Positions 1,361 to 8,352 of a stretch of 44,735 nt of DNA are shown piece by piece. This DNA comes from a phage: the sequence record PZ166175.1. The stretch is one strand, 5' to 3'. The translations under genes were made by a program, and so were the position numbers. Under the pieces are notes generated by a model. The model was given only the letters and a program-made list of their open reading frames with translations. It searched no databases and had not been told where the DNA came from. Each line of letters starts with the position of its first letter. Position 1 is the first letter of the stretch.

Positions 1361-1867
1361 TTATAGCTTACTAATTACGGACTCCAGCGCTTCCTTCATG
1401 CTATCAACGTCGTTAGCTGTGGAGTTATTGCTAATCTTAATCTCCTGCGGCTTATCAATCCCTAGCTCTTTACCAACAATCGTAGAGTTGATGATGCCTG
1501 CAACGCCAAGCTGGTATTTCTGCTCGTAGATTACGTTATCGATAAACTCCATCACGTCAGAGTATCCAGCCTCAGTACGCCAGCGAGCGAATCTATTTAT
1601 ATTAACTCCCATGAATAGCGCCAGGCCAGTTAAGGTGAACACTCGAGGCTTGTGCACTAAACTCTCGCTAACCACGCCCTGGAATGCCGCCGTCTCAATG
1701 GCTTTGATTGCCTCATTCTCAGCCCATGAAAAGTATCTCACTGCAAAGTCAAATACCTCCTCGGGAGTGTACTTGCGGTTGATTGCCACCATGGCAATAT
1801 CGCCATACTTCTTGTTGTATAGCGCCTTGAAATTTCCCTCACCCATCTTTAATGCTGCTTTGCTCAT
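1361..1867 (-). CDS. terminase small subunit (putative)
   Basis: 168-aa ORF immediately upstream of TerL on the same strand; RBS AAGGAGG before the ATG; assignment by position. Confidence 0.5.
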   Translation of the reverse strand: MSKAALKMGEGNFKALYNKKYGDIAMVAINRKYTPEEVFDFAVRYFSWAENEAIKAIETAAFQGVVSESLVHKPRVFTLTGLALFMGVNINRFARWRTEAGYSDVMEFIDNVIYEQKYQLGVAGIINSTIVGKELGIDKPQEIKISNNSTANDVDSMKEALESVISKL

Positions 1868-1884
1868 AAATCCTCCTTTGTTGA

Positions 1885-1905
1885 GGTCAGATTATACCAT
1901 ATTGC
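1885..1905 (-). promoter_or_regulatory. extended -10 promoter candidate (TGGTATAAT) for the terminase operon
   Basis: minus-strand sense reads TGCAATATGGTATAATCTGACC about 30 nt upstream of the TerS start, just downstream of a terminator hairpin. Confidence 0.4.
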
Positions 1906-1910
1906 AGACG

Positions 1911-1933
1911 AAAAAAAGCCCTCAAGCGAGGGC
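1911..1933 (-). terminator. rho-independent terminator (minus strand)
   Basis: GCCCTC-aagc-GAGGGC hairpin followed by a T7 run in minus-strand sense. Confidence 0.55.
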
Positions 1934-1979
1934 TAAAAAACAACGAGAGAAACCAAACTTAACGAGGGTATAACACTTT

Positions 1980-2177
1980 TTACTTTCGCTCACGAACGTA
2001 AGCTACCAGGAATTTGTGAGTATCAGGGTCAGCTCCTGACATCTCCTTTACTTTCGCTACCGCATCCTCAGCGCTGATTGCGGCAACTGACGCGATGTAA
2101 TCTTGAGTGCAGCTCTTACAACTGCGGCCCATTAAGCGAATGGACAACTTCACATCCCACAGGCTACTCATGGTCAT
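1980..2177 (-). CDS. hypothetical protein
   Basis: ORF track 1980..2243 with a likely internal ATG start; overlaps the upstream ORF end. Confidence 0.35.
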   Translation of the reverse strand: MTMSSLWDVKLSIRLMGRSCKSCTQDYIASVAAISAEDAVAKVKEMSGADPDTHKFLVAYVRERK

Positions 2178-2349
2178 TTGCTGATTCTTTTCCGAATAAG
2201 TGATCAAAACCATGCGGAAGATGCGCGGATACAGAAACTCCATTAAGTGAGCCTTTGACCACTCGGGTTTCCGTGAAGTCCATCTTTGCGTTAAACTTCT
2301 GAACGGAACCTGTTTCTGAATCTTTTACGATGAATGTTACAGTTTTCAT
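2164..2349 (-). CDS. hypothetical protein (61 aa)
   Basis: ORF track; same strand as flanking genes. Confidence 0.4.
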   Translation of the reverse strand: MKTVTFIVKDSETGSVQKFNAKMDFTETRVVKGSLNGVSVSAHLPHGFDHLFGKESANDHE

Positions 2350-2380
2350 AATTGAACTCCCTAGAGTTATTGGTTAAATT

Positions 2381-2458
2381 TGGCGCTCCGCACTGGATTC
2401 GAACCAGTAACCTACGACTTAGAAGGTCGTTGCTGCTATCCGATTGAGCTAGCGGAGC
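2381..2458 (-). tRNA. tRNA-Arg (anticodon UCU), with encoded CCA
   Basis: hand-folded cloverleaf: 7-bp acceptor stem GCTCCGC/GCGGAGC, anticodon stem ACGAC/GTCGT with loop CTTCTAA, T-arm ACTGG-TTCGAAT-CCAGT, discriminator G, CCA. Confidence 0.85.
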
Positions 2459-2462
2459 TTTG

Positions 2463-2495
2463 AATGAGTCCCGGTTATGATTCCGGGGTCGCCTT
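2463..2495. repeat. hairpin-containing direct repeat, copy 1 (TCCCGGTTA..TCCGGGG..GCCT)
   Basis: near-identical to 2545..2578; internal CCCGG/CCGGG inverted repeat; immediately 5' of the tRNA in tRNA sense. Confidence 0.4.
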
Positions 2496-2544
2496 TACGA
2501 CCAATTTACAAGATGACATAAATGCCACCCATATAAATCCCGGT

Positions 2545-2578
2545 TACGGCTCCGGGGCTGCCTGATACAGCCGATTAA
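2545..2578. repeat. hairpin-containing direct repeat, copy 2
   Basis: AAATCCCGGTTACGGCTCCGGGGCTGCCT matches copy 1 at most positions. Confidence 0.4.
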
Positions 2579-2818
2579 TATGCCTATTTGCGCTAGGTCT
2601 TGCAAGTCCCATAAGGGGGTGAGGTTTACGCCTTATCCTCTTGGTCCAACATTTCATCCAGTTTTAGGTCGGAATCACCTGCCGCATACGCTACTTAATG
2701 AGCTACGGACTTTTATTCTGCGCTCCGTGCGCCGTTGTGGCTTAGCCACCTCGTTTGTGCATGGCTTTATAGTAGTTAATGCCGCTCAGTGATGCAAGCT
2801 CTTTTTAAACAATCCAAT

Positions 2819-3058
2819 CTATTCGTACAACGATTGACCATTCTCATCATGACCAACACGACCCTTAAGATAACCGCTAGTCCAAACAAATCTGTCCCGA
2901 CTAATGATTGTGAACACTGGCTTCCACATCTTAGAAATCAATGCCGCAACCTGCTTATCGTCCTTGCGCTGCCTTGTCGATAGCTTGCTATACTCCTCGT
3001 TTAACTTTGCCGCTTGGCGTTTAACTGCGTTAAAGTGCGCTTCTGATAATCCGAACAT
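2819..3058 (-). CDS. hypothetical protein (79 aa)
   Basis: ORF track; start overlaps the stop of the upstream small gene (TAATG). Confidence 0.45.
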   Translation of the reverse strand: MFGLSEAHFNAVKRQAAKLNEEYSKLSTRQRKDDKQVAALISKMWKPVFTIISRDRFVWTSGYLKGRVGHDENGQSLYE

Positions 3059-3198
3059 TAATTCAACCCCCTGTTAAAGCTTGCAGTCACTTCCATCATA
3101 TCCCCATCGCAAACGAACTCGTCGCCATATTTCTCATTGAAGTAAATTAAATCATCCACAAACTCTTCTTCATAATAAAATTTACATGTGTTCTTCAT
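3058..3198 (-). CDS. hypothetical small protein (46 aa, MKNTCKFYYEEEF...)
   Basis: hand translation; RBS GAGATTGAGAA before ATG; promoter cassette immediately upstream; below the ORF-track size cutoff. Confidence 0.4.
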   Translation of the reverse strand: MKNTCKFYYEEEFVDDLIYFNEKYGDEFVCDGDMMEVTASFNRGLN

Positions 3199-3214
3199 TT
3201 CTCAATCTCTCGTT

Positions 3215-3276
3215 TTGTTGGTAATGTCATTATATGCCATTCGTGTCAGATGCTTTTAGCTATTCGTGCTATTTTT
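3215..3276 (-). promoter_or_regulatory. early promoter cassette (palindrome + 22 bp + TATAAT)
   Basis: minus sense: AAATAGCACGAATAGCTAAA, 22-nt spacer, TATAAT. Confidence 0.5.
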
Positions 3277-3392
3277 ATCTTCTCTCTCCTTCCATAGATT
3301 CATCAGTTAAAAGTACTGCATAGCCTCTTAGCCAGTCTTAGCCTCATCCATTATTCTTTTAGCCCACTGGCTTGGTAATTCGTAGTTGTCCA

Positions 3393-3554
3393 TTAGTAAA
3401 TTATTACCTCGTCTTTTGAGAGGTAGATATCTTCGCCATTCTTGTTCTTTACGATGTAGCAACTACCATCATCACTCATCTCTGCGAAGAACACATCGCC
3501 GCGCTGAATTAGCGCCACATAATCACTCTCGCCAACATAAACAACCTTAATCAT
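3393..3554 (-). CDS. hypothetical small protein (53 aa)
   Basis: hand translation MIKVVYVGESDY...; RBS AAGGTG; stop overlaps next ATG. Confidence 0.35.
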   Translation of the reverse strand: MIKVVYVGESDYVALIQRGDVFFAEMSDDGSCYIVKNKNGEDIYLSKDEVIIY

Positions 3555-4860: not shown

Positions 4861-4972
4861 ATCAGCACCCCTGATGCTGAACTTATGTTCGTATATGGTC
4901 AATAAAATTCCTTTCGTGTGGTTGATATGGGGATTATACCAGTCAGGATGAATCCCCTTTTAACGAAAGGTT

Positions 4973-5284: not shown

Positions 5285-5356
5285 TCCTCTTTGTTTTCGA
5301 TGGGGTAATCATAGCTGACTACCCGATCCATTGTTTAGCAATTCGTGCTATTTACC
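5285..5356 (-). promoter_or_regulatory. early promoter cassette
   Basis: minus sense: AAATAGCACGAATTGCTAAA, 22 nt, TATGAT, TACCCCATCGAAAAC. Confidence 0.5.
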
Positions 5357-5441
5357 ACTCAGGAGTGATTTAGCTTTCCGGTAGAACTCAATGGCCGCTT
5401 CCACCTCTTCCTCGCTGTACCGCAAGTGGTATGGTAGTCTA

Positions 5442-8278: not shown

Positions 8279-8352
8279 ATAGCACAAATTGTTAATGAAT
8301 TATAAGCGGTCGTTGTTATAATGGCCGCTCAGAAACAACACGGAGAGAAGTA
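8277..8352 (+). promoter_or_regulatory. early promoter cassette with consensus TATAAT
   Basis: AAATAGCACAAATTGTTAA, 22 nt, TGTTATAAT (extended -10), then RBS GGAGAG and ATG at 8353. Confidence 0.5.

Follow-up and report, generated by a model that had tools for sequence, protein, structure and literature searches.

Hairpin repeats upstream of a phage tRNA-Arg(UCU) gene are best described as the duplicated 3' module of a structured leader RNA in Drexlerviridae

What are the two hairpin repeats that stand, in the sense of the tRNA, directly upstream of a tRNA-Arg(UCU) gene in the phage sequence PZ166175.1 (44,735 nt, hereafter the window), and do they belong to that tRNA at all? An initial annotation had offered degenerate tRNA remnants, processing signals or a regulatory site. 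Comparison with related genomes suggests that the repeats are the tandem-duplicated 3' module of a conserved structured leader RNA, which would be processed, capped by two abutting hairpins (Ha and Hb) and bound by a partner; we hold this reading tentatively, at somewhat less than an even chance. On the sequence evidence, the leader is best regarded as a structured RNA family of Drexlerviridae that has not been described before, and the window as holding a variant with a duplicated 3' module. The earlier view of a non-coding structured element is upheld, its option of tRNA remnants fails, and its framing as a tRNA-specific oddity of one genome was too narrow. The repeats and the tRNA are arranged as follows, in the 5' to 3' direction of the RNA.

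2539-2572, minus strand: copy A, the consensus copy of the Ha-Hb module (covariance model, fold and covariation)
2572-2556, minus strand: Ha of copy A, GGCUG-UAUCAGG-CAGCC (fold)
2556-2539, minus strand: Hb of copy A, CCCGG-AGCCGUAA-CCGGG (fold)
2503-2538, minus strand: spacer between the copies, with its own 16-bp G-U-rich hairpin (fold, z = -4.2)
2470-2502, minus strand: copy B (covariance model; fold of -14.9 kcal/mol with two abutting hairpins)
2502-2487, minus strand: Ha of copy B, GGUCG-UAAAGG-CGACC, a stem of 'Rtp type' (fold)
2487-2470, minus strand: Hb of copy B, CCCGG-AAUCAUAA-CCGGG, with CAUAA in the loop instead of the conserved CGUAA (sequence and fold)
2459-2469, minus strand: linker ACUCAUUCAAA, 11 nt and A/U-rich, between Hb of copy B and G1 of the tRNA (sequence)
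2381-2458, minus strand: tRNA-Arg(UCU), 78 nt, with the CCA encoded at 2383-2381 (ARAGORN; Rfam RF00005)

The repeats are real, and the CCCGG/CCGGG stem first noticed in each is the Hb stem of copies A and B, but the unit had been drawn too short, at about 30 bp, and its second interval (2545-2578) is off by about 12 nt, covering Ha and the 5' half of Hb of copy A. A repeat finder partners 2464-2494 with 2533-2563 (31 nt, 77% identity, spacing 69), and the true repeat unit spans approximately 45-48 nt with a 1-nt indel, each copy comprising the two abutting hairpins. A covariance model built from relatives matches the 44.7-kb window twice, at 2533-2580 (71 bits, E 1e-18) and at 2464-2510 (57.8 bits, E 1e-14), and a regular-expression scan for the Hb motif on both strands of the window found nothing comparable outside the two copies. 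The linker is conserved in relatives as ACUCAUUCAAR or AAUCAUYAAAA; it is presumably single-stranded and would be cut by RNase P at its 3' end.

The window phage was placed in the subfamily Braunvirinae of Drexlerviridae (T1/Rtp-like siphophages), being 84-95% identical over 1.4 kb around the locus to PCEc3, CEB_EC3a, SU57, ACG-M12, Rtp and approximately 80 other records. Since the best relatives reach 87% identity across just 77% of the length of a 24-kb piece of the window, sequence comparison sets it apart from known isolates as a new genome at species level. For comparison, the homologous locus was taken from 21 more records and viral contigs of Braunvirinae. Relatives carry exactly one Ha-Hb unit, and two are found just in the window and in phage A110b, so that only the duplication, common with A110b, is peculiar to the window. 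The extra 69 nt of the window consist of the spacer hairpin and the second Ha-Hb unit; the spacer occurs once in the window and otherwise only in A110b, and the alignments of other relatives to the upstream leader end at approximately 2538, none covering it. Copy B of the window is identical to copy 2 of A110b. The Ha stem of copy A is the PCEc3/SU57 allele (GCUG/CAGC) and that of copy B the Rtp/AugustePiccard allele (GUCG/CGAC), which makes unequal recombination of two alleles of the leader the probable origin of the duplication. Copy B may add a second binding or blocking unit. A110b itself (MG065688.1, deposited as 'Campylobacter phage A110b', UNVERIFIED) is the closest relative for the leader and plainly has a Braunvirinae, coliphage-type genome, which makes its Campylobacter host label look doubtful. 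A separate tandem duplication, CCGGACCUU(U)CCGAGGAUUG twice, lies just 5' of Ha in Rogue1 (our locus record L045, positions ~595-640), and the region is duplication-prone in more than one lineage.

The case for a structured RNA is carried by the conservation of the two helices. In 16 distinct Braunvirinae units all stem cells are paired (144/144) and four pairs are changed on both sides, against 19-48% paired in slid controls in which the 3' partners were moved by 1-3 columns; RNAalifold predicts the identical two hairpins. To this set we added sequences from Rogunavirinae, the Nouzillyvirus-like group and Sauletekiovirus, giving 21 sequences from at least four lineages, in which 189/189 cells are paired and 7/9 pairs show compensatory changes; none of 500 shuffles reaches the observed values, and slid controls are 16-43% paired. 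The helices are therefore kept by compensatory substitutions beyond controls, which is the general mark of a conserved structured RNA. The distant lineages were reached by tblastn with the conserved upstream 79-aa gene (824 records), by two pattern scans and by BLAST with the Sf12 leader, and the module was found in Rogunavirinae (Sf12, Rogue1, Phagiculus and records L041-43), in Nouzillyvirus-like phages (P818 and L044) and in the Pantoea phage AAS23 (Sauletekiovirus). A covariance model from Braunvirinae only (R1) scored Sf12 at 14.5 bits and missed P818. Altogether the leader is common to approximately 130 or more Drexlerviridae records. Absence of the repeats from related genomes, or lack of conservation there, had been named at the outset as what would count against the finding; the hairpins are conserved in these genomes.

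Six Ha stems are in use (GCUG/CAGC, GUCG/CGAC, GAGC/GCUC, AGGC/GCCU, GAGG/CCUC and GGGC/GCCC) and five Hb stems (CCCGG/CCGGG, GCUGG/CCAGC or CCAGU, GCCGG/CCGGC, UCCGG/CCGGA and CCCGC/GCGGG), the last being that of Rogue1, in which the closing pairs are switched. Ha has 4-5 bp, and Hb has 5 bp with a loop of 8-9 nt that starts with A and ends in (C/G)GUAA, the sole exception being copy B of the window (CAUAA). All 15 tallied wobble pairs are G-U in the tRNA sense, examples being the outer pair of Hb in IME542 and 12/20 pairs of the upstream Px stem, and no A-C mismatch occurs in any of the aligned helices of leader and module. The sense strand also folds somewhat better than the antisense (z = -2.4 versus -1.6). 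Since the wobbles are G-U only in the tRNA sense and the sense strand folds somewhat better, the pattern points to an RNA in the tRNA sense, or at least to a single strand, rather than to an operator in duplex DNA.

Where does the module sit? Ha-Hb ends a non-coding leader of 150-310 nt (~300 nt in the window), which is built in the 5' to 3' order S1, S2, Px/Py, variable inserts, M and Ha-Hb and preceded by a promoter.

2769-2797, minus strand: sigma-70-type promoter, -35 TTGCAT (2797-2792), 17-nt spacer, -10 TACTAT (2774-2769), A-rich tract upstream (conservation)
2737-2749, minus strand: hairpin S1, GUGGC-UAA-GCCAC, ~15 nt after the presumed start (covariation)
2720-2732, minus strand: hairpin S2, GCGC-ACGGA-GCGC, containing CGGAGCGC (near-invariance; repeat D4/inverted repeat I3)
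2681-2710, minus strand: Px/Py stem-loop domain, CCGU/GCGG around GCU...AGC (RNAalifold consensus)
2598-2680, minus strand: variable insert, missing from PCEc3/SU57-type leaders (leader comparison)
2640-2621, minus strand: hairpin V1, GAGG-AUAAGGCGUAAA-CCUC, with an Hb-like GCGUAA loop motif (leader comparison; thermodynamically weak)
2583-2597, minus strand: hairpin M, CCUA-GCGCAAA-UAGG, in the conserved block 'agacctagcgcaaatagg' (minimum free energy fold; block kept in Braunvirinae relatives)

This promoter-like site is conserved in all 20 distinct Braunvirinae, with TTGCAT (TTGACA in ES), 17 variable nucleotides, TAAYAT, TACTAT or TAGTAT, and an A-tract before; the distant lineages have consensus-like TTGACA, TTGACT or TTGACG here, and the KpV522 record annotates a promoter at the homologous position. 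A consensus promoter scan missed 2797-2769 because the -35 hexamer matches at 3/6 positions only. Transcription would start near 2762. In every lineage the leader promoter has the octamer CTGAYYGG within its spacer, at a varying distance from the hexamers (ES and records L036 and L038-L040). The octamer also stands just 5' of -10-like hexamers elsewhere on the minus strand of the window (4939-4946, 5355-5362 and 8325-8332), as in CTGACTGGTATAAT at 4946-4933. It may belong to T1-like promoters, with TGG forming an extended -10, or be a site for a regulator.

Downstream of the promoter, four of the five pairs of S1 covary in 20 sequences and further stem variants occur in distant lineages. S2 is nearly invariant in its stem and almost so in its loop in the Braunvirinae examined, with no covariation. 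Px/Py covaries at two pairs (64/86, GC to AU in two sequences; 65/85, UG, CG or UA). A CTACU/AGUAG pseudoknot in the leader core was considered and dropped, because on inspection by eye its pairing fails in the window, TR2 and Rtp. Inserts are gained and lost as whole hairpins between conserved blocks, and an arrangement of box, S1, AAC and second hairpin follows the promoter even in PHB17, KpV522 and damhaus, all of which lack both Ha-Hb and a tRNA. A 30-nt stretch of the window at 2651-2680, AGGUGAUUCCGACCUAAAACUGGAUGAAAU, is in none of the relatives examined. The CGUAA motif of the Hb loop recurs in V1 of the window, A110b, FP, OzMSK and AugustePiccard (TR2 and Rao1 have GCGCAAA there), in S2 of P818-type leaders (L036 and L044; GCGG-UUCGUAAG-CCGC) and, as 'GACCGUAACGC', in the 5' domain of Sf12-type leaders, a recurrence that suggests a common recognition element.

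Does the module depend on the tRNA behind it? Phages P818 and AAS23 have no tRNA, and in them 12-20 nt separate Hb from the Shine-Dalgarno sequence and start of the next gene. Record L044, with a P818-like leader, has a tRNA-Arg(UCU) after the module, whereas L041 has two tRNAs, a Trp(CCA)-like one and then Arg(CCU). TR2, ES, Sf12, Rogue1 and Phagiculus carry tRNA-Arg(CCU) at the same site; most Braunvirinae carry Arg(UCU), and IME542, SCS31 and MM01 have a second, quite different Arg(UCU) sequence. In addition, an odd second tRNA follows tRNA-Arg in PCEc3 (L001, 1278-1379), EC3a, BEK6 and L044 and is absent from the window: it is approximately 100 nt long, with a 7-bp acceptor stem, a normal T arm, the loop CUUAUAC (anticodon UAU, which would read AUA) and a 26-nt extra arm, and it scores 39.4 bits with the Rfam tRNA model, above threshold, is missed by ARAGORN and is annotated in PCEc3 as tRNA-Ile. 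These arrangements indicate that the module is independent of the tRNA, that none, one or two tRNAs can follow it, and that the site 3' of Hb is a landing pad for a variable tRNA cassette. Because the module exists both without a tRNA and with two tRNAs behind it, the hairpins are not to be read as tRNA remnants.

The tRNA part of the locus was already known, and the gene is ordinary. It had been called a complete tRNA-Arg(UCU) with encoded CCA, and its coordinates prove exact: ARAGORN finds one tRNA in the whole window, with anticodon tct at position 36 in a 7-nt loop, and the Rfam model agrees, matching over its full length (1-71) with 59.6 bits against a gathering score of 29. The 3' end of the gene reads GCGGAGCG-CCA, and the tRNA is approximately 80% identical to a tRNA-Arg of the host E. 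coli in a search of 5,426 complete E. coli genomes. Papers on relatives mention '1 arginyl-tRNA' (PMC4070988; PMC7718038), and the tRNA-Arg(UCU) of T1-like phages such as Rtp, ACG-M12, EC3a, SU57 and others, annotated in many of them, is the identical locus, with no difference from that of the window. In a crude set of 59 open reading frames (ORFs) of the window, AGA and AGG occur at 10.9 and 6.6 per 1000 codons and together make up 37% of arginine codons; they cluster in the long genes of the tail and are missing from several head genes that are presumably highly expressed. E. coli uses AGA at approximately 2 and AGG at approximately 1 per 1000 codons, and the phage lies several-fold above this. 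A supplementary role of the tRNA in AGA/AGG decoding, as first suggested, is on this codon usage plausible. The CGGAGCGC of S2 also forms the 3' acceptor strand of the tRNA (CGGAGCGC-CA; 2720-2732 versus 2381-2392 and 2453-2465), so S2 could pair with the 5' strand of the tRNA and its 5' flank. Co-evolution of S2 with the acceptor was not seen, S2 being invariant even where the tRNA acceptor differs, as in TR2 and ES.

Neither a protein nor a known RNA accounts for the leader. The statement that 2459-2818 holds no convincing ORF is borne out: the ORFs are short, and the frame that the TAA of the Hb loop closes measures 6-65 codons and is without a start codon in 10 of 23 relatives; the indels of the leader are not multiples of three. 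A small ORF ending at this TAA, which annotated coding sequences in Rogue1 and Phagiculus and a 37-codon ORF of the window (2657-2544) had brought to mind, was rejected for this lack of start codons and for want of a conserved peptide. The sole ATG of the window ORF comes from the stretch at 2651-2680, and the ORF is not conserved because its ATG lies in these 30 nt that relatives lack. Hypothetical proteins have been annotated over the leader or tRNA in Rogue1 (Rogue1_0013; L045, 539-661), Phagiculus (CDS0021; L047, 310-483) and BEK6 (L035, 709-822); two of the three stop at the TAA inside the Hb loop, and all are probably annotation artefacts. Among the 4227 models of Rfam 15, including ROOL, GOLLD and CRISPR repeats, tRNA was the sole match, in the window at E<=10 and in relatives at the gathering score; other Rfam matches within 1800-3400 were far below threshold and outside the hairpins. 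The leader is absent from the 5,426 E. coli genomes, where the tRNA part alone matches, and a host origin was dismissed on this basis. In full-text literature searches for the leader, papers mention the tRNA only.

Two protein- or polymerase-directed readings of the hairpins were also set aside. Hb resembles an intrinsic terminator in being a G+C-rich 5-bp hairpin and differs in its 8-nt loop, its length of just 5 bp and its want of a conserved U-tract. A lenient terminator scan flags copy A, with the tail AUUUAUAU, but this T-rich tail occurs only at copy A and comes from the inserted spacer; the 3' flank of Hb in single-copy relatives is ACTCAT, AATCAT or AATCTT, with no U-tract. A CsrA-type GGA sponge came to mind from the ACGGA of the S2 loop and the GGA at the Hb stem-loop junction, and there are nine GGA in ~305 nt, but GGA is lost in Hb of Rogue1 (CCCGC-A) and in S2 of other lineages.

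Beyond the tRNA, the transcription unit continues into two small genes and ends before the small terminase gene, terS.

1980-2349, minus strand: two small overlapping ORFs 3' of the tRNA (61 aa, 2349-2164; 87 aa, 2243-1980; ORF list)
1917-1934, minus strand: intrinsic terminator, AGCCCUCGCUUGAGGGCU followed by U7 (terminator scan; strong)
1899-1891, minus strand: extended -10 promoter TGGTATAAT for terS, less than 20 nt after the terminator (sequence)

The 61-aa and 87-aa ORFs fall in PHROG 16862 and 2919, neither with an assigned function. The terminator, also annotated in the EC3a and MM01 records, probably closes the unit of leader, tRNA and two ORFs, a block that looks like a short self-contained operon. 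Past the terminator and the TGGTATAAT promoter (1891-1934), a perfect AGGAGG ribosome-binding site serves the small terminase gene. Antitermination of the terminase operon, another candidate function, is weakened by this promoter right after the terminator.

How might the leader work? The host-type promoter at 2797-2769 would drive a minus-strand transcript comprising the leader of ~300 nt, tRNA-Arg(UCU), the two small ORFs and the terminator at 1934-1917. RNase P would cut this primary transcript at the 5' end of the tRNA, or, in tRNA-less phages, RNase E would cut within the A/U-rich linker, and either cleavage would turn the leader into an RNA of its own. Ha and Hb, rich in G+C and stacked coaxially, would then block 3' exonucleases and offer their conserved loops to a partner, whether protein or RNA. 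The tRNA would be cargo inserted behind the module and would supply AGA/AGG decoding, and the duplication would have added the spacer hairpin and a second module with a drifted loop.

Several points weigh against this reading. The ends of the RNA, its role in stability and the existence of a partner are all predictions, and a hairpin of same-strand single-stranded DNA would give equal covariation and G-T wobbles. Since MAFFT alone misplaced the distant modules, the 21 sequences were fitted to the structure by hand; they are also related, so that the independent compensatory events number perhaps 6-8, not 50. Folded one sequence at a time, the modules have energies that do not stand out (z = -1.2 and -2.0). 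Copy B has lost CGUAA for CAUAA and may be a decaying duplicate or a by-product of recombination rather than a functional unit.

Other explanations place the function in the nascent transcript or the message. A co-transcriptional signal in cis, in which Ha-Hb acts on the emerging RNA polymerase as a pause, an attenuator or a put/nut-like processivity element, is unlikely but has arguments of its own: the element is promoter-proximal and on the sense strand, a linear box and S1 near the start are conserved family-wide, two abutting hairpins recall HK022 put, and Hb of Braunvirinae, with its 5-bp stem, 8-nt loop and ~11 nt to the next element, is by analogy like the class I pause of the his leader. 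Yet the distance from Hb to the next element varies, with an extra hairpin in IME542, SCS31, MM01, TR2 and ES, no U-tract follows Hb in relatives that would make it a terminator, and excision of the tRNA would sever the tether between leader and polymerase; moreover, with a strong terminator closing the unit and a separate extended -10 promoter serving terS, nothing calls for a read-through function. A further idea is a 5' untranslated region in which the hairpins would keep the message of the small ORFs stable or control its translation, and into which the tRNA was inserted later. This suits P818 and AAS23, where Hb lies 12-20 nt before a Shine-Dalgarno sequence and start codon, but in most phages one or two tRNAs stand between Hb and the ORFs, where RNase P together with 3' processing would separate module and mRNA, and yet the module stays conserved; we regard it as distinctly improbable. 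Because these tRNAs are kept between module and ORFs and their excision would detach the leader, a role without continuity to the downstream message is favoured. One specific form of such a role, rated no higher than the preceding one, is a trans-acting RNA whose repeated (C/G)GUAA loops (Hb, V1 and P818-type S2) would titrate an RNA-binding protein of host or phage or decoy a nuclease of tRNA arms, the duplication raising valency and the tRNAs hitch-hiking through their clean release by RNase P.

Could the hairpins be relics of a tRNA, or act as DNA? Decay without present function would derive Ha from an anticodon arm, which its 5-bp stem and 7-nt loop resemble, and Hb from a T arm, which has a like 5-bp stem closed by GG/CC; the locus does gain and lose tRNAs, and by eye a likeness can be seen between the TR2-type Hb, GCUGGAGGCGUAACCAGC, and GCUGGCGUAACAGG, which is nt 5-19 of the neighbouring tRNA-Arg(CCU). 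Against this, neither the Rfam tRNA model at E<=10 nor ARAGORN gives a tRNA-like signal in 2459-2818, no acceptor or D arm stands in register, and neutral relics would not hold 100% pairing through compensatory changes in several lineages, nor persist without a tRNA, as the module does in P818 and AAS23. The remnant option of the initial annotation is accordingly rejected as it was put, and we rate decay in general as very unlikely. Most improbable of all is an element of the DNA, either an operator bound by a dimeric protein or a hairpin of single-stranded DNA that serves recombination, replication or cassette exchange. Inverted repeats do lie exactly where tRNA cassettes come and go, in a region prone to duplication (the window, A110b and, separately, Rogue1); but the stems change sequence freely with complementarity alone kept, unlike an operator, the asymmetric loops are conserved, the wobble pairs are strand-specific, and no integrase-like gene was seen among the neighbours. 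A pac site can be discounted as well: for SU57 its authors put pac at the beginning of the genome record (PMC7718038), and the tRNA of that record is found at ~5.5 kb.

T1-like phages rank with the most common coliphages and find wide use in therapy and in defence-system screens, and their genomes are annotated as 'hypothetical proteins plus one tRNA'. The locus instead appears to hold a promoter-driven leader supported by covariation, exactly where phages gain, lose and swap tRNAs (UCU, CCU, Trp-like and the long-arm UAU). Should the leader prove stable and have a partner, phages would have in it a new regulatory or counter-defence RNA, which would also explain why tRNAs land at the site. At the least, the analysis corrects spurious coding sequences over the leader in Rogue1, Phagiculus and BEK6 and provides an RNA motif with natural one-copy, two-copy and tRNA-less variants.

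How does the leader compare with known systems? Among promoter-proximal RNA elements, HK022 put consists of two adjacent stem-loops and lambda nut of a linear box and a hairpin, and the 5' box and S1 of the leader resemble nut in architecture; no likeness in sequence is known, and the leader unit differs in ending at a terminator followed by a fresh promoter and in its tRNA, whose excision would sever the RNA from the polymerase. ROOL and GOLLD are large RNAs in Rfam, often found beside tRNA genes in phages, and, like the leader, they are structured non-coding RNAs of unexplained function linked to phage tRNA genes; the leader has no Rfam match and is a modular RNA of 150-310 nt, in contrast to their ornate fold of 600-800 nt. 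The tRNA cluster of phage T4 yields the stable small RNAs species 1 and 2 (rnaC and rnaD), and the 3'ETS-leuZ of E. coli is a functional tRNA spacer. By analogy only, the leader would work most like these RNAs: it too is a structured non-coding RNA co-transcribed with a tRNA that would be released by tRNA-processing nucleases, though it shares no similarity of sequence or structure with them, lies upstream of its tRNA and also exists where there is no tRNA at all.

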